Assembly: GCA_025993875.1 (NCBI GenBank) | Contig: JAMQHH010000014.1 | Span: forward strand, 8,009-72,008 | Direction: 5' to 3' | DNA: 64,000 bases | DNA from: Candidatus Dojkabacteria bacterium | GTDB taxonomy: Bacteria > Patescibacteriota > Dojkabacteria > J137 | In this document: positions 3,119-46,328 of the stretch, piece by piece | Layout: each line of letters begins with the position of its first letter | Position numbering within the stretch: position 1 is the first letter of the stretch | Notes under the pieces: generated by a model | The model's database searches: none | Told to the model about the DNA's origin: nothing | The model's input: the letters and a program-made list of their open reading frames with translations, nothing else | Translations under genes and position numbers: made by a program

Positions 3119-4477
3119 ATGGAATCGTTTTTATATTTAAGATTTATATTTACAATTGTTATTGGAGCCATTTTAGGACTGGAAACCGAGACAAGGTTAA
3201 ACCAAAGTGCTGCTGTTAGTAAACCTGCTGTAAAGGAAAAATTTTCTTTAGGCGGAGTTAGAACTTATACAATTATCTCTTTATTTGGTGGTGTAGCAGG
3301 TCTTTTTTATCTAAAAAACGAAACAACAATTTCTTACATTCTTGTTTTTGCTACTATGCTTTTGGTGCTTTCGGCTTATGTTTTAAATGTATCACAAAAA
3401 AAAGCGTTTGGAATGACAACCGAACTCGCAGTATTAATTACGTTTATTTTAGGGTTTTTAACTACCTCCTCACTTGTCCCAATAGAGGTGATAATTGTAA
3501 TAACGGTTCTTTTGGCATTTTTTTTATCTAATAAACGAGGTATTTCCATCCTGGTAAATAAAATTGAGCATAAGGAAATCGAAGATCTTTTTAAGTTTGC
3601 CCTTGTTGCCCTTGTTATTTTGCCTGTTTTGCCAAATAAATCAATTTTGTTAAGCGATGCTGCGTTAATTTTTGGTATTACAAAAGACTCTCTTGGCGTG
3701 TTTTCGGAATTTGTTATAGGTAATCCTTTTTCTGTATGGTTACTTGTTGTAGTAATCTCTGGATTTGGTCTTTTAGGATACATGTTGTCTAAATACATTG
3801 GTGAAAAAAAAGGGCTAATTCTTACATCTTTTTTTAGTGGATTTGTGTCTTCGACAGCAGCTTTGGTTAATTTTTCTCACAAGGCAGAAAGCGAAAAAAA
3901 TGATTACAATACCAGGCTATTTGTTAGCGGATTTCTTTTCTCGCATGCAGCCAGCTTTATTTTACTTGGTGTATTAATTGCTCTTAATAACATAAGGCTT
4001 TTTGAACTTCTCTTTCCTTTTTTGCTGTTATTTTTTGTCTCGAGTTTAATAATTGCTTTTTTTCTAACTGGTAAGACTAAACCAAAGATTTTTAAAAACG
4101 ATAACAAAATCAAATACTACCCTTTTTCTATTATTCCTGCTTTAAAATTTGTACTACTTATAACCTTTATTAACATAGCGGTACAGTTTTTAATTTTTCA
4201 AAATATTTCTTCTACTCTTTTAGTAACACTAACATCTTTAGCCGGTCTAACAGGGGTAGACGCACCTTCTATTGCTATCAGTTCGCTTCAGCAAAAGGAG
4301 ATTTTAGCGGTGGCGCCGGCGGTAATAGCAATTGTGGTAACCAACTATATAAATTTTTTAGGAAAAGGCTTTTATGCTTATCTTTCAAAGAATAAGACAT
4401 TTGGCTTATATATTGTTGTTTCGCTTTTTATTATCTTCCTGGTTTCTCTGCCTCTTTTTCTTTTATTTAGAGTATGA
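3119..4477 (+). CDS. MgtC/SapB-family integral membrane protein with a DUF4010-like C-terminal domain
   Basis: 452 aa with about 10 or more predicted TM helices. The N-terminus IGAILGLETETR...GGVRTY resembles the MgtC GLERE / GLRT motifs. Confidence 0.45.
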   Translation: MESFLYLRFIFTIVIGAILGLETETRLNQSAAVSKPAVKEKFSLGGVRTYTIISLFGGVAGLFYLKNETTISYILVFATMLLVLSAYVLNVSQKKAFGMTTELAVLITFILGFLTTSSLVPIEVIIVITVLLAFFLSNKRGISILVNKIEHKEIEDLFKFALVALVILPVLPNKSILLSDAALIFGITKDSLGVFSEFVIGNPFSVWLLVVVISGFGLLGYMLSKYIGEKKGLILTSFFSGFVSSTAALVNFSHKAESEKNDYNTRLFVSGFLFSHAASFILLGVLIALNNIRLFELLFPFLLLFFVSSLIIAFFLTGKTKPKIFKNDNKIKYYPFSIIPALKFVLLITFINIAVQFLIFQNISSTLLVTLTSLAGLTGVDAPSIAISSLQQKEILAVAPAVIAIVVTNYINFLGKGFYAYLSKNKTFGLYIVVSLFIIFLVSLPLFLLFRV

Positions 4478-4782
4478 AAAAGTTTATAAAAAATAACACA
4501 GGGTTTTCTTGTTTAGTTTGCAAAGCAATGGTACCTCCTCACACCAGCAGTTCACGAGATCATTGTAATCATTGTTTATTTGGTTTACATGTAGATAGCT
4601 TTCCGGGAGATAGAGCCAATAATTGCCAGGGAGTATTAGAGCCGGTAGGTCTAAACATTCTAGGAGGTACAAAAACAATAGTATACCGTTGTCAAAAGTG
4701 TGGTAATTCTGTTAGATGTGTAGCTGCGCCAGATGATAACTTTGAAAGGCTAATTGAACTTAGCAAAAAGGTTTATCGCTAA
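4474..4782 (+). CDS. RNHCP-domain zinc-ribbon protein
   Basis: 102 aa. FSCLVCKAMVPP...SRDHCNHCLFGLH plus a second CQKCGNSVRC pair fit the RNHCP domain family. It overlaps the upstream gene by 4 nt (ATGA). Confidence 0.45.
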   Translation: MKKFIKNNTGFSCLVCKAMVPPHTSSSRDHCNHCLFGLHVDSFPGDRANNCQGVLEPVGLNILGGTKTIVYRCQKCGNSVRCVAAPDDNFERLIELSKKVYR

Positions 4783-5546
4783 ACAATTTCTAGATCTTTA
4801 AAGACTTTTAGTCTTCTCAAGCCGTTATCTAAAGGATTTGTTAGATATCCTTCCAGAGTATGATTTACCCCGAACTCATCAATTTCCAGCCATTCCTGTT
4901 TTTCTAATGGTAAATCGGGATGTTTAATTCTTACTACACCTTTTTTTACCCCGCTTAGTTTCCCGTAATATGGTGTTGAGTGTGTGTACTCTATTTCTAA
5001 AACAGCTCCATTCTTATCTCTTTTTATATCTGTAACAAGCATTATATGATCTCCATTGAGTTTTTTTGAAGAACTCCTTATTAAATCAAGAACTCTAGCT
5101 TGGTTAATTGCTACTGTATCAGTATTATTAGCGGATGTTAGTACATGCGCACCTAACTGCTCTACAGGCCTTAAAAAGTATTTTATCCTACCAATAAAAG
5201 AGTTATCTTTTGGTATCAATTCTCTCCAAATTGTTTTCCCGGTAATTTTTTTATAGATAGCGTTGATTATGTGCGATACAAAACCCGAACAATCTATACC
5301 TATTCCTTTTTCCGTTAAAAAATTTTTTATGGATTCTGAATCTAGTTGATCAAAATTTATTCCTTTAATTTTAGCCCATATTTCAGATTCCATTTTTATT
5401 TCGCTTGGAGTGCCTTTCCCTACCATAGCTCTTAAATCGCGTGTATTTTTGCGATTAATAAAATATGGGCAGGAAACTTCCTTGCCTCCCAGTATAATGT
5501 GTGAATATCGGAAAATCTCATTATCCAAAAATTTTTTTAGTTCCAT
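4779..5546 (-). CDS. Hypothetical protein with an NlpC/P60-like (papain-fold cysteine peptidase/amidase) catalytic motif
   Basis: 255 aa. GIGIDCSGFVSHIINAIY resembles the NlpC/P60/CHAP catalytic-cysteine motif (x-DCSGF-V). It is the last gene of the minus-strand operon running from 8466 to 4779. Confidence 0.35.
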   Translation of the reverse strand: MELKKFLDNEIFRYSHIILGGKEVSCPYFINRKNTRDLRAMVGKGTPSEIKMESEIWAKIKGINFDQLDSESIKNFLTEKGIGIDCSGFVSHIINAIYKKITGKTIWRELIPKDNSFIGRIKYFLRPVEQLGAHVLTSANNTDTVAINQARVLDLIRSSSKKLNGDHIMLVTDIKRDKNGAVLEIEYTHSTPYYGKLSGVKKGVVRIKHPDLPLEKQEWLEIDEFGVNHTLEGYLTNPLDNGLRRLKVFKDLEIV

Positions 5547-5558
5547 ACAATTAACGTA

Positions 5559-6983
5559 TTATTTAATAATATGTTCGATTGCTGCAAAAGCTTCTAAAAT
5601 CCATGGCTTAAGACCGTTTCGATCAAAAATTTGTTCTTTAAACTGCATCCTCGAAAGCTCTTCGCCTGTTAATTTAACTTGCCCCGGGGGTTGATTTAGT
5701 AAAACAAAACCTCCATTATCAATTTGCTCAACACTAAATCCATCTTTCTGATAGATTAGCGGCTTGTCCATCTCCTCATCGAGGTAAATAATATTTTCTT
5801 TTCTTTGCAGAGTATCCCAATTTATTGCACTGTTGTCGCTTTGCAATCTGTAAATTCCCGATTTAGCCATGTGATTAATTTTAAAATTTTCTTTGGCTCG
5901 CAAAAAAACCTGAGATCCGAATAAGTTATTTATCTCCTTTTTGGGATCAATATCTATAGGTATTTCTAAAAACTCAGCAAGGTGTAAAAGACTCAAAGGA
6001 GTTTGATTATGTAAAAGTTCAAGTTTTGTTTGCATGGGAATATTGGCTGTTTGCCTCGCGTTAATTTCGATTACAAAAATATCCCCGGATCTGCTTATTA
6101 TAAGATCTATCCCAAATAGACCTCTGTAACCATTGGCTTTTAAAATCTCTCCAACACAGCTTGTTTGATTAAAAACTTTTTGCTTTAAATCATTATCAAG
6201 AGAATTTGCGTAGCTCCAGTCGTTCCCGACCGTAGAACCTTTACCTAAAGTTAGTTCGGGAATTCCGGTAATTTGGTATTGTAATCCCGCAACAAATATT
6301 TTCCCACCGGCAATACATCCGTTAATTGTGTAAGAATCGCCTTTAATATATTCCGAAAATTTTAAAAAATTTCCCGAAAGCTTTTGCATTAAGATATTAA
6401 ATTCTACCTCTCCATCAATAAAATATGTTCCCGCACCAGTATGTGATACATCCATCTGTACAACTATTGTGCTTCCTAATTTAGATTCAGCTTCGGCAAA
6501 AGAAATTTTCCCTGCCTCTGCAATAATTGTTTTAGGAATATTAACTAAGGTTTCCCTTAGCTTTTGGTACTGGCTTATTTTATTTTCAAATATCCTGTTT
6601 AAAGATGAGTGATTGTTTAAAACTTTTCCGCCGGCTTTTTCGACTATTTTATAAGCAGGTTCATTAAACTGAAAAAATTGAGTAAAAAACACTTTCCCCG
6701 ATGCAATACTATTAATCCAGTTTAAACACTCTTTATGTTTTAAAAGATTTAAAGTAGTTTTAGGAGCTACTTTTACATTATTTTTTTCTGCACAAAAAAT
6801 TTTTAGTCCTTTTGCCGATAATTGTTCCTCGATGTAACTATTTTCAATACAAATTGGAAAATAATTCTCGATTAAATTTTCCATTCCTACCGATCTTTCA
6901 ATATCACGGGAAGCATAAAAAAGCGGAAATTCTTTGGTTTTCGCGTTAATTTGGTCTAAAATTTTTTTTGTATCAGAATTCAT
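5559..6983 (-). CDS. ATP-grasp superfamily ligase (unknown substrate) with about 200-aa N-terminal extension
   Basis: 474 aa. The C-terminal ATP-grasp signature GLFGIDLIISRSGDIFVIEINARQTANIP is present. The start overlaps the upstream methyltransferase stop (ATGA). Confidence 0.7.
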   Translation of the reverse strand: MNSDTKKILDQINAKTKEFPLFYASRDIERSVGMENLIENYFPICIENSYIEEQLSAKGLKIFCAEKNNVKVAPKTTLNLLKHKECLNWINSIASGKVFFTQFFQFNEPAYKIVEKAGGKVLNNHSSLNRIFENKISQYQKLRETLVNIPKTIIAEAGKISFAEAESKLGSTIVVQMDVSHTGAGTYFIDGEVEFNILMQKLSGNFLKFSEYIKGDSYTINGCIAGGKIFVAGLQYQITGIPELTLGKGSTVGNDWSYANSLDNDLKQKVFNQTSCVGEILKANGYRGLFGIDLIISRSGDIFVIEINARQTANIPMQTKLELLHNQTPLSLLHLAEFLEIPIDIDPKKEINNLFGSQVFLRAKENFKINHMAKSGIYRLQSDNSAINWDTLQRKENIIYLDEEMDKPLIYQKDGFSVEQIDNGGFVLLNQPPGQVKLTGEELSRMQFKEQIFDRNGLKPWILEAFAAIEHIIK

Positions 6984-7543
6984 TTTACAATTTTGTAAAA
7001 GTAAAATTTATCGACAATCTTATAAGGCTCAACTTCTTCTAATGTAAATGTGTTTGTAATAATAGTGCTTCCGGGCTTTAGCTCCCTAAACAACTTTTCT
7101 TTTAAAATATTCATATGCTCTGGAAAAAGATACATATAAACAATATCGTAATCAGAATAATTGTGATTCTTAAAATCTTTATTAAACACCCTAACCTTTT
7201 TAGATAAACCTTTAAATGCAGTCTTTACCCTTGTAAAAAGCGAAAGAAATGGATTATATTCTATCCCATGAGCCATAGCCCCTTTTTTAGCTGCCCATAT
7301 CATAATTCTACCATCGCCCGAACCGATATCGATAAAATTTGTTGAGCTGTCGATTGGAATCTCCTTCTCGTTAAAAAGTTTATCCAGTTTTTTTAATTGA
7401 GACGGATAAAAAGGTGTTTTAGTAAGCCAAGACCACAAAAGATAAATAGCAAATACTATTAAAATTATTTCAAAAAGAATAATTGCTATAAAAGCCGTAT
7501 TCATATTTTTATTTATATTAAAAAGTATTATCTGCCAGAACAA
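6980..7543 (-). CDS. Membrane-anchored class I SAM-dependent methyltransferase
   Basis: 187 aa. An N-terminal TM helix (FIAIILFEIILIVFAIYLLWSWL) is followed by motif I FIDIGSGDGRIMIWAA and motif post-I/II. It overlaps the upstream PLP gene by 16 nt. Confidence 0.65.
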   Translation of the reverse strand: MFWQIILFNINKNMNTAFIAIILFEIILIVFAIYLLWSWLTKTPFYPSQLKKLDKLFNEKEIPIDSSTNFIDIGSGDGRIMIWAAKKGAMAHGIEYNPFLSLFTRVKTAFKGLSKKVRVFNKDFKNHNYSDYDIVYMYLFPEHMNILKEKLFRELKPGSTIITNTFTLEEVEPYKIVDKFYFYKIVK

Positions 7544-8466
7544 AGAACTATTGATTTATTTACCTTCAAATCGCCTGAGCCTTTAATTGCAGCTGCTAAA
7601 GCTAAAGCCGATGTATAAGAGATGTTAATATTAAATTTATCTAATAGCAAATTTTTAGCTGCAACAATTTCGTCCTCTTTGGGTACTAAAACTGTTCCAT
7701 TAGAATTTGTGATTATTTTTTTTATTCTTTGCTGGTTTTCGCAAAGCTTATCAAAAATTGAATCGGAAACGCTTTTTTCTACCATACTCTTTAATTCGGG
7801 TTTTAATGGGTGTACGGCCTCTGTTTGGCAGGCAATAAGTTTTGGCATATTGTATTCGTCACCTACCTTTTGATTTATACCTAATGCTGCCCCAATAAAT
7901 GCAGTCCCCGAAGAAACAGGCATAAATATAGCAGTTTGACTGTTATCTTCTTTTTTATTTAGTAGCTCTGCTAATTCGAAACCAAGCGAAAGATAGGCAT
8001 TATAAATTAATGGGTCATTTCCTGACCTTAAGTTAATTGCTTTTCTAAGCGAGGCAATTTTTACACCAGTTGCTTTCGGAGTATCCGATAAATACAACTT
8101 GTGGTGGGTATTTGTTAATAACTTCTGAATTACTCCTACTTTTGTAATATTCGCATCATTTTTTAAAACAATATGTAAAACAATTTCGGGGTATAGCTTA
8201 GAATATGTTAGAAAGCTTATAGCAGCATTACCCGAAGAAACCAATACTGCTTCTTTAACTTTCTGAGCTTTTAGCAATGTAAGCTTGTATGCTGCTGCTC
8301 TATCCTTCCACGATCCTGTTGGGTTTAGGTCTTCTCTTTTAAGAAAAATCACTAAGCCGTTAAGTTCTATCTTATTAACCAAAGTATCAGATTCGTTTAA
8401 AGTAAGCAAAAGCACATCGTGTAACGGCAGAGATTTAGTTATTTCTTTGTATCTCCAAATTGACAT
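7528..8466 (-). CDS. PLP-dependent fold-type II enzyme (threonine synthase / cysteine synthase-like)
   Basis: 312 aa. LKREDLNPTGSWKDRAAAY contains the PLP-lysine motif (S/T-x-K-D-R) of tryptophan-synthase-beta-family enzymes, and the glycine-rich loop PVSSGTAFIGAA is present. Confidence 0.7.
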   Translation of the reverse strand: MSIWRYKEITKSLPLHDVLLLTLNESDTLVNKIELNGLVIFLKREDLNPTGSWKDRAAAYKLTLLKAQKVKEAVLVSSGNAAISFLTYSKLYPEIVLHIVLKNDANITKVGVIQKLLTNTHHKLYLSDTPKATGVKIASLRKAINLRSGNDPLIYNAYLSLGFELAELLNKKEDNSQTAIFMPVSSGTAFIGAALGINQKVGDEYNMPKLIACQTEAVHPLKPELKSMVEKSVSDSIFDKLCENQQRIKKIITNSNGTVLVPKEDEIVAAKNLLLDKFNINISYTSALALAAAIKGSGDLKVNKSIVLCSGR

Positions 8467-8532
8467 AATCTGGTATTTGACTATTAAACATAATATTTTA
8501 TAATATAATCATTATAAGTTAAATCTTTTATT

Positions 8533-8961
8533 ATGGAACCGCAAGCAACTTCTCCACAAACAAGCGATAGCCAAAATGTTGGCAATCCAAGTAACGCTAC
8601 TGTTACGCCGACAAGCTCTCAAATTTCTCAGACTGATTATAAAGTAGATCCAAATACTGAGATAATGACCGATGATTTAGCAGGGTTAAGTTCTGATTCG
8701 AAAACTCCGAAAGTTCAGCCCGGTACTTGGATTGAGGTACTGCTTGAAAACTTTATATGTTCAGAGTGCGAAAACTCAAATTACCTTATGGTAAATACAC
8801 CCGACGGCTTGTCCAAGCTAGGCAGAGAAGAAATTATTGCAGATTTAAAAATGTATCCCGCAAAAAAAATTTACACAAGCTGTGAGTTGTGCGGAATGGA
8901 GTATTCTTTTAAAGAATTTGAAAACAGGCTTTATTTGGAACCATCAGATAGAGAAAAATAG
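8533..8961 (+). CDS. Hypothetical protein with an S/T/Q-rich disordered N-terminus and a C-terminal CxxC...CxxC zinc-ribbon
   Basis: 142 aa with CSEC...CELCG. It lies divergent from the ATP-grasp operon. No recognisable family. Confidence 0.4.
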   Translation: MEPQATSPQTSDSQNVGNPSNATVTPTSSQISQTDYKVDPNTEIMTDDLAGLSSDSKTPKVQPGTWIEVLLENFICSECENSNYLMVNTPDGLSKLGREEIIADLKMYPAKKIYTSCELCGMEYSFKEFENRLYLEPSDREK

Positions 8962-9118: not shown

Positions 9119-9176
9119 GCATAAGTCCAGTGTGCGTGTAATCTTCAATATTGTTTCTAATTCAAGATATAAAGCG

Positions 9177-9248
9177 GCAGATGTAGTTCAATGGTAGAAT
9201 GCTTCCTTCCCAAGGAAGAGGTTGCGAGTTCGATCCTCGTCATCTGCT
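9177..9248 (+). tRNA. tRNA-Gly (anticodon CCC)
   Basis: Cloverleaf folded by hand: acceptor GCAGATG/CATCTGC, D-arm GTTC-AATGGTA-GAAT, anticodon stem CTTCC/GGAAG with loop TTCCCAA (CCC), variable AGGTT, T-arm GCGAG-TTCGATC-CTCGT, discriminator T. No CCA is encoded. Confidence 0.85.
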
Positions 9249-9343
9249 AACAGATCTTCGCATTTGTGTTCAATTGGAAGAATGTCTCGAAGCCATAGCT
9301 TGGCATCTAGTCCCTCTGAGGAGGTTGATCCTGCCCGTAGGTA

Positions 9344-9853
9344 TTACGCGAGATTTTTTTTTGCTATTTTAAGCGCTTCACCTTCCAAAGCTACAACGTA
9401 TATTTTCTCATCTTTTGCAAGAATTTTAATAACTGTTTTAAGAAAAAGTTTTGCTTTGCTAAACTTGCGCGGAAGAATAAGAGCAATCCCTTTTGGAGAA
9501 ATACCTTTTAGCTTTTTTAACTTTATTTTTGCCAGGTTAATTATTCTAATATCCGGAATAAATGCAATACCTCTAGACAGATTGATAATGGTAAAAACAC
9601 TTGCGTCGATAAGATTTGTTTTCCTGGAATCGTTAACTATAATTTCCTCACATGCCTTTTGTATTTGGAAAACAATGGAGTAGTTTGATATTTTTATTCT
9701 CTCCAAAAGATATATCATAACTATATAATAAGAGCTGCTTAGACCGTTTTGGCACAACACTATTTTGAAGTAAAAAGCTTTCTCTTGTAAAAATTTTTTG
9801 TAACCCGACTTTAATAGTTTCTCCTCCTCTATTAAATCCTTGTATCGCAGCAT
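9344..9853 (-). CDS. Hypothetical protein
   Basis: 169 aa ORF immediately 3' of tRNA-Gly. No recognisable motif. Confidence 0.35.
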   Translation of the reverse strand: MLRYKDLIEEEKLLKSGYKKFLQEKAFYFKIVLCQNGLSSSYYIVMIYLLERIKISNYSIVFQIQKACEEIIVNDSRKTNLIDASVFTIINLSRGIAFIPDIRIINLAKIKLKKLKGISPKGIALILPRKFSKAKLFLKTVIKILAKDEKIYVVALEGEALKIAKKNLA

Positions 9854-11909: not shown

Positions 11910-14900
11910 ATGTCTCTCTTTTTAGAAAAGTATAATAAATTAAACAAAGTACAAAAAGAAGCAGTTAATTCTATTTACGGTCCTATTTTAGTTTTAGCGG
12001 GTCCAGGCACAGGTAAAACTGAGATACTATCACTTCGAATTGCAAATATTCTAGAGAAGACTGATGCCAATCCCGAAAACATTTTGTGTATAACATACAC
12101 CGATGTTGGGGCTACCAACATGAGGGAGAGATTAAAAAAATATATCGGTAATTTAGCTTATAAGGTAAATATATTTACCTTTCACGCTCTTTGCAACGAG
12201 ATAATTATTAATAATCCAGAATATTTTGCCGAAAGAAGAGCGTTAACTCAAATTTCGGATATTCAAAAACAAAAAATTTTAAGAACAATATTAGACCAGT
12301 ATGATCGGGAAAAGGAGAAACGTCCATTGGTTCTTTTTAACGATAAGTACAAATATGCAAAAGAAATTTTAGAGCAAATTGGAATTTTAAAAAAAGAAGA
12401 TATTTTACCCGAGGAATTTCTAAAAAAATCACAGCAGCTTTTAGAGGAACATCTAATGGTTCCCAAAATAAATAAAAAAACACAAAGACCAACAGTCGAC
12501 TGGCAAACAAAAACGGACAAACTTCAAAAAATGTGCGATCTAGCCGAAGTTTATCAAAATTACTCGCTTGAACTAAAAAAGAACGGTCTTTACGATTACG
12601 ATGATATGATTTTACAAACAATAAAAGCCTTACAGGAAAACGAAGCACTTTTGGCAAAATATCAGGAACTTTTTCAATTTACATTAATTGACGAATTTCA
12701 GGATACCAATGGGTCTCAGTTTAAAGTAATTGAACTTTTAACCTCTTTTGATAACTCTCCAAATTTATTTGCGGTGGGGGACGATGACCAATCTATCTTT
12801 CGATTTCAGGGTGCTAATCTTTCTAACATTATTAACTTTACTCAAAAGTTTCCAGGTACAAAAACTATTACCGTAACAACAAATTACAGGTCAAATCAAA
12901 GTATTCTTAATTTGGCAGACTCACTTATTTCTAACAATACCGAAAGAATATCGGTAAAAAATAAAGAGGTAAACAAAAAGCTTGTTAAAGGGGTATTAGA
13001 TCTTCCCGAAATTAAACCTAAACTTATTGAATTTGAAAATCAGGATTTAGAATACATATATTTAATAGATAGTGTAAAAGATCTTATTAATAGTGGCGAG
13101 GATCCCGAAGACATTGCCGTTTTATTTTCAAAAAATGTTACAGGAGAGGAAATAGCTGAACTTTTTATAAAATCAAAGATACCGGTAAAACTTAATTCCG
13201 GAAGAAATGCCTTGGACGAGCCATTTGTAAAAACATTCTGGGAGCTGTTAAAAGCTGCTGATGGAGACCCAGTGGGTCAGAATTTAACAGTTTTTACCTT
13301 ACTATTGAACTTTTTATCTAACATCCCTGCCGATGATTTTTATAAACTTTCGGTGGATTATAAAAAAGAAAAAACTTTTAACAGAGAATACAAAGATTTG
13401 GGTTTTATGGAATATCTTTTAAATCCGAAAACATACGAAAAGCTCGATATCAATACAGGAGAATCCATAATTGAATTTTTGAACAAAATAAAAAAATGGC
13501 ATATTAGTTCTTTTAGCCAAAACATTTTGCTTTTAATCCAGGAGATTTTAGAGGATACAGGCTACATTGAGAAGTTTGTAGAAAAAAATAAAGATAATGC
13601 AATAGAGCCTGTAAATTCTTTTCTTTCCTTTTTTGATTATGTAAAGACCCAGGTAAAGGCAATGCCCGATCTAAAGCTTGCCGAATTCTTAAACGAGGTT
13701 AACTTAATGAACGAAACTAAAATCGTTGTACCCGAAAAGGAGCTTAAAACAGACCAAAAGGGAGTAACACTGTCTACTGTACATAGTGCCAAAGGGCTGG
13801 AATTTAAGTATGTATTTTTTGTAGATTTAACAAATAAAGAGTGGGGTGCCATTAAAAAAAGTAATCATTTAGCTATTCCTCCCGAACTTGTATTTAACTC
13901 GAATGCTCTTCCCTCTCGAGAAAGCCAAATTGAAGATAGAAGAAGACTTTTTTTTGTTGCAGTTACACGGGCAAAGCAATATTTAACTCTTATGTATCCG
14001 CTTAAATATTCTGATTCCGAAAAAGAAAAAGAGGAAGTTTCGAGCTTTATAGGCGAAATAGATAAAACGCTTATTGAGGTTACAAATGTAAATACAAACA
14101 ATAAAGCTGTTACAGATTTTGCATTACTTAAATTAAAAAGTGATGCTAAAACCCGAAATGAATCTAAATTTTTAAAACAGATTGTAGAAAATTTTGAACT
14201 TAGTCCTACAAACTTAAACTCGTATATAACTTGTCCGCTGGAATTTAAATACAACTACCTTGTAAAGGTGCCATCTGTTTCTAATCAGGCTACTGCCCTT
14301 GGCACAGCGATACACTCGGCGCTGGAAAAATGGAATAGAAATATAATGGAAAGTAAACCTACCTCGTTTGAGGAACTGGTTAGCCAGTTTAAATTAAAAG
14401 TGAGTAAAGAAATTATCCCTATAGCGATGCAAGATAGCGTTTTAAAGGAAGGCATAAAACTATTGCAAGGATATTTTGATTACTATAAAGGCATTAGCCG
14501 TAAGCCTGTTAAAGTAGAATATAATTTTTCGCAAAGAAATATTTATTTCCCTCTATCGAATGGGGAAAATATTAAGCTTACCGGTAAAATTGATTGTATC
14601 GATTTAATTGATAAAAATACAATAAGTTTAATAGATTATAAGGTTTCTTCTCCCAAATATCCCAAGCTTATTATGGGCAACCCGCCTTATTGGGAAAATA
14701 ATTACCGCCAGCTTTTATTTTACAAATTGCTTATCGATTTAGATACAACTTTTTTTGTTGATAGATCGTTAACTAAACCCGGCGTTTTGGAAGTTATTTT
14801 AAATTATGTTAAGCCTCAAAAACAAAAGTACATACAAAGAGCTTTTGTAATAACAAGTGACGAAACCGATGCCTTTAAGTCTTTAATAAATAAGGTTACT

Positions 14901-14987
14901 TTGAATATAAAAAACCTCGAATTTTACGGGACGAATGAGTTTCCTCTTTGCAAAAAATGTAAATGGTGTCAATTAAACTTGGCATAG
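11910..14987 (+). CDS. UvrD/PcrA-family SF1 helicase fused to a C-terminal PD-(D/E)XK nuclease with Cas4/AddB-like Fe-S cysteines
   Basis: 1025 aa. Walker A LVLAGPGTGKTE, motif III LIDEFQDTNGSQ, motif IV TTNYRSNQSIL, motif V/VI STVHSAKGLEFKYVFF and RRRLFFVAVTRAK are all present. C-terminal nuclease motifs are IDCIDLI...IDYKVS (D..D/ExK) and QLLFYKLL (QxxxY). The Cys quartet is CPLEF (N-terminal of the nuclease domain) plus CKKCKWC at the extreme C-terminus. Confidence 0.8.
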   Translation: MSLFLEKYNKLNKVQKEAVNSIYGPILVLAGPGTGKTEILSLRIANILEKTDANPENILCITYTDVGATNMRERLKKYIGNLAYKVNIFTFHALCNEIIINNPEYFAERRALTQISDIQKQKILRTILDQYDREKEKRPLVLFNDKYKYAKEILEQIGILKKEDILPEEFLKKSQQLLEEHLMVPKINKKTQRPTVDWQTKTDKLQKMCDLAEVYQNYSLELKKNGLYDYDDMILQTIKALQENEALLAKYQELFQFTLIDEFQDTNGSQFKVIELLTSFDNSPNLFAVGDDDQSIFRFQGANLSNIINFTQKFPGTKTITVTTNYRSNQSILNLADSLISNNTERISVKNKEVNKKLVKGVLDLPEIKPKLIEFENQDLEYIYLIDSVKDLINSGEDPEDIAVLFSKNVTGEEIAELFIKSKIPVKLNSGRNALDEPFVKTFWELLKAADGDPVGQNLTVFTLLLNFLSNIPADDFYKLSVDYKKEKTFNREYKDLGFMEYLLNPKTYEKLDINTGESIIEFLNKIKKWHISSFSQNILLLIQEILEDTGYIEKFVEKNKDNAIEPVNSFLSFFDYVKTQVKAMPDLKLAEFLNEVNLMNETKIVVPEKELKTDQKGVTLSTVHSAKGLEFKYVFFVDLTNKEWGAIKKSNHLAIPPELVFNSNALPSRESQIEDRRRLFFVAVTRAKQYLTLMYPLKYSDSEKEKEEVSSFIGEIDKTLIEVTNVNTNNKAVTDFALLKLKSDAKTRNESKFLKQIVENFELSPTNLNSYITCPLEFKYNYLVKVPSVSNQATALGTAIHSALEKWNRNIMESKPTSFEELVSQFKLKVSKEIIPIAMQDSVLKEGIKLLQGYFDYYKGISRKPVKVEYNFSQRNIYFPLSNGENIKLTGKIDCIDLIDKNTISLIDYKVSSPKYPKLIMGNPPYWENNYRQLLFYKLLIDLDTTFFVDRSLTKPGVLEVILNYVKPQKQKYIQRAFVITSDETDAFKSLINKVTLNIKNLEFYGTNEFPLCKKCKWCQLNLA

Positions 14988-15132
14988 CCTTTTTCTTTTT
15001 TTAGATATTATTTAGCTATAAACCTTTTAGAGACAAATTTTGACAACTGAACTTAGACTAATGCTGCCATAATACGATGACAAATCTCTGATTTTGTTAT
15101 ATAATAGTGATATCAATTATTAATAACAAAAT

Positions 15133-15966
15133 ATGTGGGATAGAAAATTAGGTGGCCTTGAGTGTGAAACTTATCGCAAAATAACGATTCCTACAATAGA
15201 AGAGGCAAAAGACACTTTTAAGAGTATAAAGGATGAATGGAGGCCAAAATATAGTTACGACCCTGATGCATTAAAAACAATATGGAGAGAGGTTGAGAGT
15301 GCCTATGGTGTTGTTGTTTCGGAAGGCGATACAGATAAATTGCCTAGTTCTGAAACCTCACGAGGATTTAACCAACTGACAAACCAGGAACTAAATGATC
15401 TTCTTATCGACATTGCAATAGTTAAAGCAGAAATTGATAGGGCGATTGAGGATAAAGATACATTTGACTTATTTGCAGTTGCAAATGCTATTCATAGAAG
15501 ATGGGTTGAAAGTAATAGTAAAGAAGTATTTAACGTTAATCAAGGTGAATTAACTGATTCTGATTCTGAAAAACATAACCCTAAGATCGTTTATCAGGAA
15601 ACGAATAACAGTTACCAATTTTATATTTATGTTGAGTTTGAGGGCAACTTTAGAGAGGTTTATGTAGGTTCGGGAGAGAGTTTAGAACCAATTCCACAAG
15701 CTGTAATAGAAAAAGCTAAAAAAAGACAAGCCCAAATGGTAGATTTTGCAAGATTAAGTAAAAAAGATAAATTGTTCGATTTAATAAGAGGCTTAAGCAT
15801 ACATGCGAATATTAAGCGAAATTCAAGTCGTTTTAATAATGGTGTCATTAATACTATTTGTCGCGTACGCGGAATAGAAGAATATCAGAGATTGTTTCTC
15901 GAAGTCTGTCGTACAAAACCTAAGGAAAAAGAGGGAGCGGGAATATATGATAGCAGAGAAGCTTAA
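15133..15966 (+). CDS. Hypothetical protein
   Basis: 277 aa. No recognisable motif. Sits 145 nt downstream of the helicase-nuclease. Confidence 0.4.
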   Translation: MWDRKLGGLECETYRKITIPTIEEAKDTFKSIKDEWRPKYSYDPDALKTIWREVESAYGVVVSEGDTDKLPSSETSRGFNQLTNQELNDLLIDIAIVKAEIDRAIEDKDTFDLFAVANAIHRRWVESNSKEVFNVNQGELTDSDSEKHNPKIVYQETNNSYQFYIYVEFEGNFREVYVGSGESLEPIPQAVIEKAKKRQAQMVDFARLSKKDKLFDLIRGLSIHANIKRNSSRFNNGVINTICRVRGIEEYQRLFLEVCRTKPKEKEGAGIYDSREA

Positions 15967-17061: not shown

Positions 17062-18135
17062 ATGAAGAAAAAGGTTTTTGCCGGGTTATCAGGCGGAGTG
17101 GACAGCTCTTTGTCTGCGTTGCTTTTAAAAGAGGCGGGGTACAATGTTACCGGAGTCTTCTTAAAAAACTGGTCGGGGGACGATTACGGCATACAATCTG
17201 ACTGCCCCTGGGAAAAAGATCAACAAGATGCCGAAAATGTATGCAAGATGATTGGTATTGATTTTATGTCGTACAATTTTGAAAAAGAATACAGAACAAA
17301 AGTTGTCGAGTATTTTTTTAAAGAATATAAAAAAGGTAGAACACCAAACCCCGATGTAATGTGTAACAAGGAGATAAAATTTAAACTTTTTCTGGAAAAA
17401 GCAATGTCGGAAGGCGCAGATTTTATTGCAACCGGTCACTATGCTCAAATAAAAAAAATTGATAATAATAGAATCTCGCTTTTTAAAGGAAGTGATCCAA
17501 AAAAAGATCAAAGCTATTTTTTATACACCTTAAGAAAAGAGCAACTTAAGAAAATAATTTTTCCTGTTGGCAACCTAACAAAAGATCAGGTTAGAAAAAT
17601 TGCCGAACAAAAAAATCTTCCAACTGCCAAAAAACCCGATAGCCAGGGGATCTGTTTTATTGGAGAGATAAATGTTTTAAAATTTTTAATGTCACAGATT
17701 CCAACCAGGAAAGGCGATATTATCGATATAGATTCGGGAAAAACTGTGGGAGAACATAGTGGAGTAGAATTTTACACCATTGGCCAACGTTCAGGTTTAA
17801 AAATTGGTGGTAGTTCTTTGCCGTATTATCTTGCAAAAAAAGATATAGCCAAAAATATTTTGTATGTAGCATTAGGGAGAAATAATCCTGAACTTTTTAC
17901 ACAAGAAGTTATTTTAGAAGAGCTTTTTCTTTCCGCTCGAGATTTTTCTGAACTAAGTTCGCTTACACTATCAGCTTCGATTCGGTACAGGCAAAATCCC
18001 GCCAGGTGCAAAATTTTAAAAGAAAATAATACCGTTAAAGCTGTTTTTACCGAGCCTTTAAAAACACCATCCAGTGGGCAAAGTCTGGTTTTGTACAATA
18101 ATGACGAATGCCTAGGAGGAGGAATAATAAAATAA
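17062..18135 (+). CDS. mnmA: tRNA-specific 2-thiouridylase
   Basis: PP-loop FAGLSGGVDSSLSA and the conserved cysteines/pattern of MnmA (ATGHYA, DQSYFL). 357 aa. Confidence 0.9.
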   Translation: MKKKVFAGLSGGVDSSLSALLLKEAGYNVTGVFLKNWSGDDYGIQSDCPWEKDQQDAENVCKMIGIDFMSYNFEKEYRTKVVEYFFKEYKKGRTPNPDVMCNKEIKFKLFLEKAMSEGADFIATGHYAQIKKIDNNRISLFKGSDPKKDQSYFLYTLRKEQLKKIIFPVGNLTKDQVRKIAEQKNLPTAKKPDSQGICFIGEINVLKFLMSQIPTRKGDIIDIDSGKTVGEHSGVEFYTIGQRSGLKIGGSSLPYYLAKKDIAKNILYVALGRNNPELFTQEVILEELFLSARDFSELSSLTLSASIRYRQNPARCKILKENNTVKAVFTEPLKTPSSGQSLVLYNNDECLGGGIIK

Positions 18136-18206
18136 GGTGTCGGCGGGAATTGCACCCGCGGATAACAGTTTTGCAGACTGTCGCCTTACTACTTGGCCAC
18201 GACACC
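18136..18206 (-). tRNA. tRNA-Cys (anticodon GCA)
   Basis: Reverse complement folds as GGTGTCG-TG-GCC..., anticodon stem ACAGT/ACTGT with loop CTGCAAA (GCA), T-arm GCGGG-TGCAATT-CCCGC, acceptor 3' strand CGACACC. It abuts the mnmA stop codon and lies 2 nt from the stop of the convergent downstream gene. Confidence 0.8.
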
Positions 18207-21912: not shown

Positions 21913-24792
21913 CTATTGAAGTACTGCTGTCCAAGCTACTCCTGTAACTGTATCTGCACCTGCTCCACCCGGACCTGTAACAATAATTGTTGCTGTATTG
22001 GATCCAGTTGGATCGGAAACTAATGCAACTCTTGTATTTGGTCCAGCCGATGCTGTTATTGGTGTAAATGTTATTGATTGAATCGGTGCACCTACATTAA
22101 TTACGCAAGTAAATCCTGCTGCTGTGGTAACTCCCGCACATGTTAAATCTACGCCTCCTGTTACTACATTTCTTGCCTGTAGTGCTGTTACGTCAGCTTG
22201 AAGGTTTGTAATATCAGTTTGAGCGGTTGTCATAGCAGTTTGCAGATTTGTTACATCTGTTTGTAACAATGTAACCGACGAATTAATATTTGTTAATTCG
22301 GAAGCTACATCTGCGTATCCTGTAATAGAGAGAGTTCCCAAAACATTTAGGTTTCCAGTTAAATCAGCATTACCTAAATAAGCATTTGCCCATCTGTAGG
22401 TTGTATTACCTAAACTGTAAACATTATCAATATCGGGAATTAAATCGCTATCGACTGTACCTAGGAATGTTGCCATGTTGTTTACAACAAGATCATTTAC
22501 TGTGAGTTGAGCATTAATAAACGAATTACTGTCAACTGTTAATGCACCACTAAATGAAGCATCTCCGGACTGTGTAATAGTTGCTCCACCTGCTCCATAA
22601 CCTGCTCCTGTAGCTAAAAATCCATCCATATAGATATCACCTGTATCGGTTAAGGTTAAACCTCCATCAGCATCTCCATAACCACCCGCTACATTCATAT
22701 AACGGTTTGTTCGTAGTGCTCCAAATTCGTCTATAGTTAAACCTCCGTCGGCATCACCAAACCCACCTCCGACTTGCAGAGAGAAATCAACAAAGCTTGT
22801 CTCTGTTGTTGTATTGTCAGAGTAGACATTTGCCCATCTTGTAGTATCTGAGCCTAGGTTGAATAAAGAATCCCACGATGGCATGGCATTGCCAAAGAAT
22901 GTGGTTGTTCCAGCTCCATCTACCCACAAAAGCGTTCTAAACGGATCGTCTCGTCTTGTTATAATCATTCCGCTATTATCTTCGATAGTTAGCGGATCGG
23001 AATCACCGGAACTGATTGGACCGGTTATTACTACTCTGTCGGAGTTTGCATTTCCTAAAAATACATCTCCGGTTGCTCTTAAATTATCGTTTACTACAAC
23101 GGTTCCCGTAGAGTTGTAAATTTCTCCGTTTACATTAAGATTTCCACCAACTGTTGCATTTCCTAAAATATTTGCGTCATCACAGTAGCTTGAGCCTCCC
23201 GTAGTTGTAAAGCAATCTGCAAAGATGTTATCTACAAACAGGTTTGCCCAAGAATGTGCTGCGCTTCCAAGGCTATATATTCCGTCACCATCCGGTAATA
23301 TGTCAGATCTTACCAAAGAATAAAATCTTACTATATCGGCATCGCTATTACCGATTCTAACTTCGCCATTTAAAAACGAAGTTCCATCGGTTGCTATATT
23401 TCCTCTGGTGTACATATCTCCGGTTGAATTTACTACAAAAAGTTCATTATTTGTTAAATCAAAAAGCCTTATTCCGGATGCTGCAGTATGAATTGCTCTT
23501 ATATTTAATTCACTTGCATCTACTGTTCCTTCTACTCTAAGATCTCCGATTAACTTTGCTTCAAAATTTGTTGCTTCGGGAATTTCAAATCCGTTATCAC
23601 CAGTTCTTAAAACGCTAAATACCGGGTCACCGATAGCGGTAAGTCCCACTTCTAGGCTTCCTAATACCTGAGCATTTTCATCTACTGATAGGTTATCAAC
23701 AATATGCGCACTATCGCAGTATGTAGAACCTCCCATTGAAGAAAAACAATCTGCTGAAAGATTTGCAGCATAAATATTTGCCCATCTTAAAGCACTTGTT
23801 CCTAAGCTATAAGTATTATCTACCATTGGCACAAGATCAGAAGTAGCTCTACCTAAAAAGAATAGTGCGTCGGATGCGCTGTTTCCTAAATATGTATCAA
23901 AATTAAAATAACTTGCACCTTCGAAAGTGCTTGTTCCTAAAACTCTTAAAGTTCCATCAAATCTTGTATTTGCAAATCCTACAAGATCATCAACCAAAAT
24001 CGTTTTACCATATACATATAAGTCCTCGCTCAGTCGAGTAAGACCGTTTACTGTTAAAGCAGGTGCCAATGTTGATGCATAGGGAGAATTTATTGTTAGG
24101 GCCCCGCTCATAGTATCTCCCGTAACGTTTACGTAAAGATCATTTGCCTGGCCTTTTAATAAAACGTCTGTATTACTGTTGTTATCAAGGTATCCTTGAT
24201 CGGCTAAATCCGAGTATGCATCAAAATATGTGTTTCCTAATAATCCTGCATTTATGTTACTTGCATTTCTAAAAAATGTTGAGTCAAATCCATCTAGTAA
24301 ATCTGCATTTCTGAAAAAAGACGAATCAAATCCGTCCAATAAATCAGAATTTAATCCAGACCCGTTTCCCTGCAAAAGGTTAAGAGTAACATTTTGTCCC
24401 GATGTGGTAACAGGAAGATTTCCACTTATTGAGGTAATTGTTATATCACCCTCCGAGATGTTATTAATAGAAGTAATGTTTTCAGTGGACCCTATAGGAA
24501 AAGAGAATGGGGTGTCTTCCTCGCCGGGTGCTTTTACAACTAATTCGTCGTTTTCGTTGACCAAAACTTTTAGCTCACCTTCTTTAGTTGTAGCTCCAAG
24601 AACCTGATCGTTCTTTTTTGAATCGAGATCTTCGGTGATCAATTTACCTTTAATAGTTTGACCATCCTTTAATTCAATACCAATTTCTTTATTATTTAGA
24701 TTGATATTGGGGGTAAATAAACCTATTACTGCAATGATTACAGCGATCAGGCTGAATGCTGCAAGTAACCTAACTACATTAGATTTACTCAT
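21913..24792 (-). CDS. Large (959 aa) repeat-containing fibrous secreted/surface protein (tail-fibre-like repeats)
   Basis: N-terminal signal-anchor. G/T/S/N/D-rich. A tandem 14-aa repeat DLLDGFDS(S/T)FFRNA x2. Four copies of a D-[LI]-[VIL]-P-x2-D-x2-Y-S-L-G-x4-[RS]-W-A-N-x-[YF] unit, two followed by ADCF..GGS.YCD. A GYGDADGGLT x2 repeat. A C-terminal coiled-coil-like TNLQ...TNLQADVTALQ. Confidence 0.6.
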   Translation of the reverse strand: MSKSNVVRLLAAFSLIAVIIAVIGLFTPNINLNNKEIGIELKDGQTIKGKLITEDLDSKKNDQVLGATTKEGELKVLVNENDELVVKAPGEEDTPFSFPIGSTENITSINNISEGDITITSISGNLPVTTSGQNVTLNLLQGNGSGLNSDLLDGFDSSFFRNADLLDGFDSTFFRNASNINAGLLGNTYFDAYSDLADQGYLDNNSNTDVLLKGQANDLYVNVTGDTMSGALTINSPYASTLAPALTVNGLTRLSEDLYVYGKTILVDDLVGFANTRFDGTLRVLGTSTFEGASYFNFDTYLGNSASDALFFLGRATSDLVPMVDNTYSLGTSALRWANIYAANLSADCFSSMGGSTYCDSAHIVDNLSVDENAQVLGSLEVGLTAIGDPVFSVLRTGDNGFEIPEATNFEAKLIGDLRVEGTVDASELNIRAIHTAASGIRLFDLTNNELFVVNSTGDMYTRGNIATDGTSFLNGEVRIGNSDADIVRFYSLVRSDILPDGDGIYSLGSAAHSWANLFVDNIFADCFTTTGGSSYCDDANILGNATVGGNLNVNGEIYNSTGTVVVNDNLRATGDVFLGNANSDRVVITGPISSGDSDPLTIEDNSGMIITRRDDPFRTLLWVDGAGTTTFFGNAMPSWDSLFNLGSDTTRWANVYSDNTTTETSFVDFSLQVGGGFGDADGGLTIDEFGALRTNRYMNVAGGYGDADGGLTLTDTGDIYMDGFLATGAGYGAGGATITQSGDASFSGALTVDSNSFINAQLTVNDLVVNNMATFLGTVDSDLIPDIDNVYSLGNTTYRWANAYLGNADLTGNLNVLGTLSITGYADVASELTNINSSVTLLQTDVTNLQTAMTTAQTDITNLQADVTALQARNVVTGGVDLTCAGVTTAAGFTCVINVGAPIQSITFTPITASAGPNTRVALVSDPTGSNTATIIVTGPGGAGADTVTGVAWTAVLQ

Positions 24793-24888
24793 TTAAAATA
24801 ACTAATATATAAAATATATATTTCTAACTATTGACTGATTATAGCACAGAGCTGCCTATTGTGTATAGTAGTTAAGAAAAAGTCGCAA

Positions 24889-26832: not shown

Positions 26833-27455
26833 ATTCTAAGTTTTACATCTACAGGTTGCTCAAAAAAAAGCCCATTTGGAACAGGGTCGATTTTAAACAG
26901 AGCTTTTATCTCGCCATCGGTAAGAAATGGATAAAGATATATAAGTTCTGCATTGTGAGGCGATTTGTCTAAAGGATTGATCCACTCTGCGGTTTTTGGC
27001 TGAGTAAAGTCAAAATCAATTGTCCAGTTAAATGGTATCGAGGCTTCAATATAATCCGAATCTACAACTATAATATCTAATATCTTGGCATATAAAGTTA
27101 CTGTATCACCTTTGTTAAGACTTATATTAGTAACCTCTCCTTTAGAAGTTGAATATACACTCGAAATAAATGATTCTTCTGTATTAGTTTGTTCGACCCC
27201 AACAATATTATCTCCTACTCTTCCTAAAAGAGTTTCTATTTCTGCAATTTTTTCACCTTTATCTACAAAATCACCATTTGTTACATACATTTCTTTTATC
27301 TGCCCTATCGAAACTGAATTTATAGTGGCTATTTCGGCCTTTAATTTTCCTTTTAGAGTAATTTCTTTTTTATTGCTAAAAACCTTGTTAAATAATAGAT
27401 AACCAAATCCGAAAATTAAAATTACAAACATTACTGTAAAAATTCTTTTACTCAT
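26829..27455 (-). CDS. HlyD-like membrane-fusion/periplasmic adaptor protein (biotin-lipoyl-like barrel)
   Basis: 208 aa. An N-terminal TM segment, then GQIKEMYVTNGDFVDKGEKIAEIE, a lipoyl-like hairpin typical of HlyD/MFP adaptors. Overlaps the GT2 synthase gene by 8 nt. Confidence 0.45.
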   Translation of the reverse strand: MSKRIFTVMFVILIFGFGYLLFNKVFSNKKEITLKGKLKAEIATINSVSIGQIKEMYVTNGDFVDKGEKIAEIETLLGRVGDNIVGVEQTNTEESFISSVYSTSKGEVTNISLNKGDTVTLYAKILDIIVVDSDYIEASIPFNWTIDFDFTQPKTAEWINPLDKSPHNAELIYLYPFLTDGEIKALFKIDPVPNGLFFEQPVDVKLRI

Positions 27456-43857: not shown

Positions 43858-43877
43858 AATAAAATTATAACAAAAAA

Positions 43878-45275: not shown

Positions 45276-45303
45276 TTTTCAATAATTAAAAAATATTTTA
45301 TTT

Positions 45304-46242: not shown

Positions 46243-46328
46243 TAAACAAATAAAAACTATTTAGTCACTAAAGTATAGCACCAGGAAATCTTTTTTCCGA
46301 CAAAATTTTTGAAAATATTTCTGTACAC

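Follow-up and report, generated by a model that had tools for sequence, protein, structure and literature searches.

A conserved five-gene module of Patescibacteria built around a lysine-ending zinc-ribbon protein: a possible carrier-protein pathway beside peptidoglycan genes

The DNA analysed here is a 64,000-nucleotide stretch of a Candidatus Dojkabacteria contig (JAMQHH010000014.1, positions 8,009 to 72,008 of the forward strand; henceforth the window), and our subject is a compact group of five genes near its beginning. The window is AT-rich (G+C about 33%), and those homologues of its proteins that come with a named source belong to Candidatus Dojkabacteria (WS6), a lineage of the Patescibacteria or Candidate Phyla Radiation (CPR), which accounts for much of bacterial diversity and whose members, with very small genomes, have for the most part not been cultured. 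Four of the genes lie on the minus strand between 4779 and 8466, exactly where an earlier note, made from the sequence alone, had placed them. They are PALP (7528–8466, 312 residues), a fold-type-II pyridoxal phosphate (PLP) enzyme of the Pfam family of that name; MT (6980–7543), an S-adenosylmethionine (SAM) methyltransferase with a transmembrane (TM) helix, class I by Pfam and aKMT-like by NCBIfam; GRASP (5559–6983, 474 residues), an ATP-grasp amide ligase matching Pfam ATP-grasp_3; and NLPC (4779–5546, 255 residues), an NlpC/P60 (C40) cysteine amidase recognised by its fold and catalytic residues. The note took these four as the whole set and overlooked a fifth component, ZNR (8533–8961, plus strand, 142 residues), an acidic zinc-ribbon protein that profile comparison relates to the carrier protein LysW, and whose gene is arranged head-to-head with that of the PLP enzyme, with 66 bp between ZNR and the start of PALP.

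The tight packing reported for the minus-strand genes stands in part. An ATGA overlap joins the MT stop to the GRASP start (6980/6983) and a 12-nt gap precedes NLPC, but the other overlap (7543/7528) needs a TTG start for MT; the ATG at 7504 (174 residues), favoured by the gene caller and by the homologues, leaves a 23-nt gap to PALP. Co-transcription of the four genes is supported. In the 66-bp divergent region between PALP and ZNR (8467–8532), the plus strand holds the best sigma-70-like match of the 5 kb scanned (TTGACT-16-TATAAT, 11/12, 8477–8504) and the minus strand a promoter-like match of 9/12 (8522–8495). The total of such matches in the region is not above shuffled expectation, so the sequence is only suggestive of candidate back-to-back promoters for the operon and ZNR.

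To follow these genes through related genomes, species representatives were scanned with a ligase alignment, which yielded 366 relatives; 80 loci were kept and joined to five fetched earlier. Dojkabacteria supply about half of these 85 loci, and Magasanikbacteria, Uhrbacteria, Paceibacteria and other Patescibacteria the remainder; open reading frames (ORFs) were called in all of them and searched iteratively with the window proteins, and the resulting counts are not phylogenetically independent. The first three homologous loci (37–49% identity) already had the same gene set. Overall, the amidase gene accompanies the ligase gene in 81 of the 85 loci, on the same strand in 76 of these 81 and with a median gap of 0.5 nt, and the two are fused into a single ORF in L056 (709 residues) and L076 (666 residues), an association far beyond chance. 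The PLP gene was found in 62 of the 85 loci and ZNR, with a profile and a lowered ORF length limit, in 60. Wherever both occur they are divergent (59 of 59 pairs, median gap 44 nt), while the three loci with PLP only and the one with ZNR only are all cut by contig ends; in four loci ZNR lies 18–38 nt upstream of the ligase on the same strand. Orthologues that were scattered in related genomes would have spoken against a dedicated pathway; they are instead kept together across Dojkabacteria and other Patescibacteria, which supports the earlier suggestion of a dedicated, non-housekeeping pathway. The window thus shows the form that this module of five genes, conserved throughout the Patescibacteria sampled, takes in Dojkabacteria. 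A number of loci that have the complete module, L064 (DATION010000002.1) among them, are labelled with unrelated taxa (Udaeobacter, Gammaproteobacteria, Saccharibacteria) and are probably mislabelled or misbinned metagenome-assembled genomes, so that the taxon names in such collections call for caution.

ZNR occurs in two forms. The common short form has 54–67 residues, a median net charge of -9, the pattern C-P-E-C-K-N-E ... G-D-V-V-E-C-x-x-C-G-I-E-L-E-V ... and the tail [IV][IV][DE]-E-[GE]-K. The window carries the long form of Dojkabacteria, with a low-complexity N-terminus, an insertion of about 20 residues separating the two CxxC knuckles, and a tail, ...LEPSDREK (LEPS[DE]xxK in the long forms generally), which likewise ends in lysine. 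The isoelectric point (pI) of ZNR is 4.2, against a proteome median of 8.6. A Jackhmmer search started from the window ORF recruits the short forms of 54–67 residues, and profile–profile comparison with hhalign joins long and short forms at a probability of 97% (E = 1.1e-10), aligned up to the terminal lysine. Short ZNRs, at 42.3 and 33.1 bits, pass the gathering threshold of the Pfam family Zn_ribbon_LysW (PF21344; 27 bits), in the PDB they match LysW of Thermococcus and Thermus best (5k2m_E, 8.4e-7; 3wwl_A, 4.2e-6), and LysW models are the top NCBIfam matches of ZNR; the long window protein taken alone matched no Pfam or NCBIfam model.

A profile search of a 5.8-billion-protein collection gave 1480 ZNR homologues, and among the matches listed all 120 terminate in lysine (DEGK in 97, EEGK in 12, EEEK in 11), all those with a named taxon being Patescibacteria; the terminal lysine recurs in every copy shown from the 60 ZNR-bearing loci, and in nearly all tails an acidic residue stands two or three positions before it. 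A final residue that never varies is typical of proteins serving as carriers or tags. In LysW proper the tail reads ...EDWGE, and the substrate is held by the gamma-carboxyl of its terminal glutamate; the glutamate ending of LysW-type proteins is not what ZNR has. We also considered that ZNR might be the detached N-terminal zinc ribbon which archaeal-type threonine synthases presumably carry, since 44–66 N-terminal positions of the threonine-synthase profiles are left unmatched by PALP, and found the idea unsupported: NCBIfam (up to E = 10) and PDB scans with ZNR gave LysW and never threonine synthase, though such a descent in evolution may still be possible. Isoelectric points of the partner enzymes, tried as a sign of LysW-style docking, do not discriminate, the whole proteome being basic, and a comparison of length and indel co-variation between ZNR forms and partner proteins gave nothing decisive.

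As for the enzymes, the assignment of PALP to the fold-II PLP enzymes holds (Pfam PALP, E = 1.3e-36). The GSWKDR motif is present, with Lys53 and Arg55 invariant in 46 sequences of the family, as are Asn79 and Ser184–Ser185. The best NCBIfam matches are archaeal-type threonine synthases, short of the membership score (NF006205, 95.4 bits against a cut-off of 358), and a profile of the 46 members likewise finds threonine synthases best in the PDB, over the full length (6cgq, 2.5e-30). Two elements by which threonine synthase (ThrC) binds the cofactor phosphate and the substrate are the GNAGN loop and the arginine of the NPYR-EGQKT segment; in profile alignments to 6cgq, 2zsj and 2d1f the loop is replaced by SSGT in PALP, and the segment, arginine included, aligns with a non-conserved stretch. 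Later matches of the same profile are serine and aspartate racemases, dehydratases, SbnA and cysteine synthases (E from 1e-22 to 1e-12), the fold-II racemases 6lut (7e-22) and 5ybw (3.5e-18) among them. By these comparisons PALP is best described as threonine-synthase-like and not as a threonine synthase.

GRASP is also of the class first proposed (Pfam ATP-grasp_3, E = 1.8e-11), but what had been read as an N-terminal extension of about 200 residues turns out to be the ordinary ATP-grasp N-domain, which falls outside the Pfam model. Its AlphaFold model (pLDDT 94.8) is one compact, complete ATP-grasp enzyme, with the three-domain fold and the conserved nucleotide- and Mg-binding residues, with 310–368 residues superposed when it is compared with PurK, PylC and their relatives. 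The structures nearest to it are those of PurK, PylC and L-amino-acid ligases, ranked ahead of Ddl (about 19), LysX/ArgX (17.6–18.3), RimK (17.2) and ligases of ribosomally made peptides with post-translational modifications (RiPPs; 13–15). Residues 18–395 align with the biotin carboxylase-like model PRK06524 (NCBIfam NF005096) at 110.9 bits, below its cut-off of 684, and sequence searches of the PDB with ligase and amidase returned marginal matches only. A canonical RimK, Ddl or PurK would have argued against a dedicated pathway, and by fold comparison GRASP is none of these. A canonical Ddl is encoded separately in the window (42694–43857; E = 5e-36 to E. coli DdlB, Pfam Dala_Dala_lig_N/C), and the Ddl Pfam domains were not found in GRASP. 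That the ligase might be a non-orthologous D-Ala-D-Ala ligase, an idea drawn from the murB/murC context described below, was rejected, given this Ddl and a MurF-like ligase in the same window. In three loci the ligase carries a C-terminal NUDIX domain with an intact Nudix box (L092, 15122–16765, minus strand; L093, 18118–19731, minus strand; L075, 3384–5105, plus strand) and stand-alone NUDIX genes adjoin ZNR in some non-Dojkabacteria Patescibacteria; this association, seen in about 10 loci only, hints at a nucleoside-diphosphate-linked substrate or by-product.

The papain-like NlpC/P60 character attributed to NLPC from its DCSGF motif is borne out by the fold and by a catalytic triad. The window protein carries GIDCSGF and has only a weak Pfam match (Amidase_6, E = 0.016), and its orthologues in L092 and L093 pass NLPC_P60 (PF00877; 24.0 and 25.4 bits against 23). 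In the AlphaFold model (pLDDT 92.3, built on 39 homologues) the fold is closest to peptidoglycan NlpC/P60 endopeptidases, several of them annotated as gamma-D-glutamyl-diamino-acid type; the Foldseek matches to the PDB are weak. Cys86 and His167 are invariant in 39 sequences, and the third triad position, 189, is His in 31, Asn in five, Glu in two and Gln in one. Some 80 residues at the N-terminal end form an additional domain, conserved and cytoplasmic-looking, and the N-terminus (MELKKFLDNEIFRYSH...), read by eye with no predictor run, has no hydrophobic signal segment. NLPC thus appears to be cytoplasmic and not a secreted wall hydrolase.

The methyltransferase is the optional member. It is a class-I enzyme with one N-terminal TM helix, as the note had proposed when calling it membrane-anchored, and its catalytic domain is predicted to be cytoplasmic. 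Pfam matches to class-I methyltransferases are weak; by far the best family match is the NCBIfam archaeal protein-lysine N-methyltransferase NF041081 (E = 6.6e-17), which covers profile positions 14–123 of 142 at 61.9 bits, below the cut-off of 200. The closest PDB structures are 5bxy (1.5e-12), aKMT4 (5fa8, 3.8e-10) and the protein-lysine N-methyltransferase 5jwj (3.7e-9); aKMT itself is not known to have a TM anchor, unlike MT. The gene is present in 37 of the 85 loci, and its presence follows the form of ZNR: it accompanies all 17 long forms, 15 of the 30 with an EEEK tail and none of the 13 with a GK tail. MT is a lineage-specific accessory of Dojkabacteria and a few others.

Outside Dojkabacteria the module has a characteristic setting, with the order MurB, ligase, amidase, MraY, a gene for an ATE_C-like, DUF1611 or GNAT protein, a MurC/Mpl-like ligase and, last, the divergently oriented pair of ZNR and PLP genes. 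The same MurB/MraY/MurC-like picture was obtained three times when loci were sampled from the ZNR side, and many Dojkabacteria have MraY four genes upstream, with a MurC-like or ATE-like gene downstream. The guess of a cell-envelope modification pathway, one of two offered at first, fits this neighbourhood of the other lineages. The place after MraY and before the MurC-like gene is filled variably, as a 'transferase slot' of the cluster: a DUF1611/DgcN-like gene occupies it in L054 (10961–12100, plus strand) and likewise in L060, L068, L073, L074 and L084, and an arginyltransferase (ATE_C)-like or GNAT gene does so in other lineages. The score of the DgcN-like product is 213.9 bits, where the cut-off is 480; DgcN, listed in NCBIfam as an N-acetyltransferase, acts on D-glutamate. 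One locus (L055) has two MurC-like paralogues within 10 kb (5326–6762 and 13917–15323, both on the plus strand), one at a distance of 92 nt from ZNR, the other following FtsW-MurG in the canonical place of MurC; the copy next to ZNR is perhaps Mpl-like or a ligase specialised in some other way. Homologues of MurI and Alr, looked for with a missing racemase in mind, were not found in the window or in any of the locus flanks, an uninformative result as these amount to only about 1.3 Mb of partial genomes.

The reading we favour, with a probability of roughly 0.4, is that ZNR acts as a carrier or scaffold which the ligase loads, on which the PLP enzyme and, where present, the methyltransferase act, and which the amidase unloads, the product feeding peptidoglycan precursors; we infer all of this chemistry. 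Gene set, families and folds, intact catalytic residues, conservation, fusions, the constant terminal lysine and the neighbourhood are observed; the role of carrier, the lysine atom used, the single reactions and the product are our proposal. A carrier role is preferred because of the invariant last residue, the acidic tail, the LysW-like ancestry and charge, the pairing with the PLP gene and the association of ligase with amidase. The ligase would spend ATP to form an amide at the terminal lysine of ZNR, preferably by activating the carboxyl of an amino acid as an acyl phosphate and linking it to N-epsilon of the lysine, in the manner of PylC, whose partner is free lysine. Loading would then follow the logic of LysW with its polarity reversed, since in LysW a glutamate carboxyl captures an amino group. 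Three weak clues incline us to N-epsilon as the atom used: the ligase resembles PylC in fold, the accessory is lysine-methyltransferase-like, and there is a symmetry with LysW (glutamate carboxyl against lysine amine). The PLP enzyme might edit the tethered amino acid at its free alpha-amino-acid end or, alternatively, use the carrier tail as a nucleophile, like CysM and MetM with their carriers; that a ThrC-like PLP enzyme can cooperate with a carrier protein has a precedent in MetM/MetO (as cited in bioRxiv 10.1101/2024.10.14.618325). In Dojkabacteria the aKMT-like, membrane-anchored methyltransferase would add an N-methyl group, and the cytoplasmic NlpC/P60 amidase would cut the amide, releasing the product and regenerating the carrier. 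In other lineages the neighbours of the module are MurB, MraY, a MurC-like ligase and an aminoacyl-transferase-like gene, which makes peptidoglycan-precursor synthesis the likeliest use of the product, for instance as a D- or non-standard amino acid. A sharper version of this scheme, in which ZNR would be the first 'reverse-polarity' LysW, that is, a carrier of carboxyl groups, with an amino acid such as Glu or Asp attached through its side-chain carboxyl to the lysine N-epsilon by the PylC-like ligase, converted by the PLP enzyme (for example by epimerisation to the D-form or by beta/gamma-substitution) and released by the amidase, is in our view rather doubtful. If true, it would provide an ATP-driven, carrier-channelled supply of D- or non-standard amino acids for the peptidoglycan stem peptide or cross-bridge of genome-reduced Patescibacteria.

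Several observations weigh against a carrier role. About 25 ligase–amidase loci have no PLP or ZNR gene within 8 kb, so that the pair may also work without a carrier, or the carrier genes may lie elsewhere. ZNR is genetically tied to the PLP gene and not to the ligase, which would fit a mere subunit as well. The loss of the ThrC-type GNAGN loop and NPYR-EGQKT segment means that the substrate of PALP cannot be guessed from its sequence, the NUDIX domain of the ligase in some lineages hints at a nucleotide-linked substrate for which carrier loading has no need, and the window's own lineage has no adjacent peptidoglycan gene.

The most serious competitor, although on balance an unlikely one, is a carrier-free explanation in which a D- or unusual amino acid comes from the PLP enzyme and is added directly by the ATP-grasp ligase to a UDP-MurNAc-peptide or a lipid-linked precursor, in the way of the D-aspartate ligase Aslfm with its aspartate racemase, and the NlpC/P60 protein trims or proofreads the result. 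ZNR would here be a zinc-ribbon subunit or regulator of the PLP enzyme, its tail perhaps mimicking the Lys-COOH end of the UDP-MurNAc-tripeptide. The MurB/MraY/MurC-like neighbourhood speaks for it, and so do the link of ZNR to the PLP gene and not to the ligase, the ligase–amidase loci that have neither ZNR nor PALP nearby, and the fold-II serine and aspartate racemases among the matches of the PLP profile; the NUDIX domains fused to the ligase and the separate NUDIX genes of the cluster would suggest a nucleoside-diphosphate-linked substrate, though in few loci. What such a subunit would not need is an invariant last residue, an acidic tail and a LysW-like charge, and the nearest relatives of ZNR are true carrier proteins.

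The invariance of the terminal lysine could also mean that this residue is itself the raw material, as in scaffold systems resembling those of PEARL, pyrroloquinoline quinone (PQQ) or mycofactocin: the encoded lysine would be modified on the protein and cut off, and the ATP-grasp enzyme would put a fresh one back on the shortened scaffold. The PLP enzyme would alkylate N-epsilon by beta- or gamma-replacement to give a lysinoalanine-like diamino-dicarboxylic acid, MT would methylate it and the NlpC/P60 protein would cut at the X-Lys bond. Fold-II PLP enzymes can use amine nucleophiles, and SbnA is among the PDB matches of the PLP profile. NlpC/P60 DL-endopeptidases, to which NLPC is matched by fold, cut the amide on the amino side of a Lys or diaminopimelate (DAP) residue, and a ligase and a hydrolase acting on the same bond would account for their fusion; the lysine-methyltransferase-like character of MT also agrees. 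We consider this improbable all the same, since the ligase resembles free-amino-acid ligases and not C-terminal protein ligases (RimK, TTL), there is no evidence of truncated ZNR genes, and the chemistry is wholly inferential.

Much less probable still is an analogue of the sulfur carriers CysO/CysM/Mec+ or MetO/MetM, with the ATP-grasp enzyme activating the C-terminal carboxylate of ZNR to yield a thiocarboxylate, the ThrC-like enzyme making cysteine or homocysteine on the carrier and the NlpC/P60 protein releasing it. The strict pairing of the ZNR and PLP genes recalls MetO/MetM, where a carrier gene is paired with a ThrC-like PLP gene, and all four roles have analogues in these sulfur-carrier systems. 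Yet ZNR is a zinc ribbon with a terminal Lys in place of a beta-grasp protein with a terminal Gly-Gly, the annotated neighbouring genes included none of E1-like or rhodanese type, we know of no thiocarboxylate made by an ATP-grasp enzyme, and the peptidoglycan context would be left without explanation. A graspetide-type RiPP, in which a Glu or Asp of the ZNR tail and the terminal lysine would be cross-linked by the ATP-grasp enzyme into a small lactam, methylated and excised by the peptidase, is the least credible, for although a small peptide, an ATP-grasp, a methyltransferase and a peptidase together look like a RiPP cluster and nearly all tails have an acidic residue two or three positions before the lysine, ZNR is a folded, conserved zinc ribbon kept in hundreds of reduced genomes in a fixed, housekeeping-like context, neither sporadic nor hypervariable, and the ligase is not of the MdnB/MdnC type.

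The surroundings of the module in the window belong to its sub-lineage, where it is flanked by RNHCP, MgtC/DUF4010 and MiaA genes on one side and by tRNA-Gly and a UvrD-like helicase on the other. The RNHCP zinc-ribbon gene (4474–4782, plus strand) does converge on the operon, as the earlier note remarked, its stop overlapping that of the amidase by 4 nt, but it is kept in only 8 of 86 sources (the 85 loci and the window) and is no module member; it and the likewise converging MgtC/DUF4010 membrane-protein gene (3119–4477, plus strand) were considered for membership and rejected, being conserved only in the nearest relatives, and the pair as such is kept only in the closest Dojkabacteria (8–9 loci). 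On the other side, tRNA-Gly(CCC) lies at 9176–9249 (plus strand), about 215 nt downstream of ZNR; of two mutually overlapping ORFs there (9222–9683, plus; 9344–9853, minus) the gene caller calls only the minus-strand one, a protein of 169 residues with no family match; tRNA-Cys(GCA) is found farther along (18135–18206, minus). Three minus-strand regions elsewhere in the window are worth recording. At 21913–29010, in a run of large genes for envelope or glycan functions, a 959-residue protein with a faint match to a phage tail-spike family (End_tail_spike), a 647-residue GH81-like glucanase, a 208-residue ORF and a 520-residue cellulose-synthase-like GT2 protein possibly form a cluster for beta-glucan synthesis and turnover. 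The 730-residue product of 32103–34295, with the Pfam domains G6PD_N/C, NAD_binding_2 and 6PGD, is apparently a fusion of glucose-6-phosphate dehydrogenase and 6-phosphogluconate dehydrogenase, enzymes of the oxidative pentose-phosphate pathway. At 42694–47795, the genes for S-adenosylhomocysteine hydrolase (43878–45275) and a PfkB-family kinase (45304–46242), called as a SAM-recycling pair, stand between two peptidoglycan genes, Ddl (42694–43857) and the MurF-like ligase (46329–47795).

Unannotated today, this module of five genes is kept faithfully beside genes for cell-wall precursors and is likely to be important for building the envelope; it would offer a directly testable handle, by way of a 55-residue protein, on an unexplained step of CPR cell-wall biosynthesis. 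No description of it was found in the literature searched, a coverage that did not extend to the 2009 amidoligase survey by Iyer et al. Among known systems, the glutathionylspermidine synthetase/amidases, already invoked in the earlier note, and their trypanothione counterparts are alike only in that an ATP-dependent amide ligase has as its partner, and sometimes within one protein, a papain-like amidase able to undo this type of bond; their architecture, an N-terminal CHAP domain followed by a C-terminal Gsp-type synthetase, was not found here. A further lead is the D-aspartate ligase Aslfm of Enterococcus, an ATP-grasp enzyme that acylates lysine N-epsilon with the side-chain carboxyl of an amino acid and is encoded with an aspartate racemase for the peptidoglycan cross-bridge; that system has no known carrier protein or amidase, and its racemase is PLP-independent. 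PylC shares the fold of GRASP at a sequence identity of only 14%, acts on free L-lysine and works with PylB and PylD, partners that the module lacks, and we do not claim GRASP for the PylC family.

Closer parallels come from systems in which a carrier takes part. CysM takes the C-terminus of CysO as a reactant. In CysO-CysM-Mec+ and in MetO-MetM, a fold-II PLP gene (ThrC-like in MetM) is paired with a small carrier gene, the carrier C-terminus enters the reaction and a hydrolase releases the product, as we propose here. The differences are in the parts: a beta-grasp fold ending in Gly-Gly against a zinc ribbon ending in Lys, an E1-like adenylyltransferase against an ATP-grasp ligase, and a JAMM metalloprotease against a C40 cysteine amidase.

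The nearest comparison is with LysW of Thermus and archaea and the amino-group carrier protein (AmCP) of Streptomyces. ZNR and these proteins are small, very acidic zinc ribbons of one Pfam family whose flexible C-terminal tail is conserved, and their genes go together with those of an ATP-grasp ligase and of a hydrolase, enzymes that could charge and discharge the carrier while an amino acid is built or modified tethered to the protein. The ZNR tail ends in D/E-E-G/E-K, whereas that of LysW is EDWGE with a terminal Glu, and the ligase is PurK/PylC/Lal-like and not RimK/LysX-like. There are no analogues of LysZ, LysY or LysJ, the modifying enzyme being the ThrC-like PLP enzyme, and release would fall to an NlpC/P60 cysteine amidase and not to LysK, an M20 metallopeptidase; the genes around the module are for peptidoglycan and not for lysine or arginine biosynthesis. 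Judged from its sequences, the module would work like the LysW/AmCP pathway but share only the ribbon domain of its defining features. To our knowledge, carrier-protein-mediated amino-acid metabolism is known only for LysW-type proteins ending in glutamate, and the concept of the carrier protein would become wider with a large sister family that ends in lysine and has another kind of ligase, together with a PLP enzyme and a cysteine amidase, as its partners.

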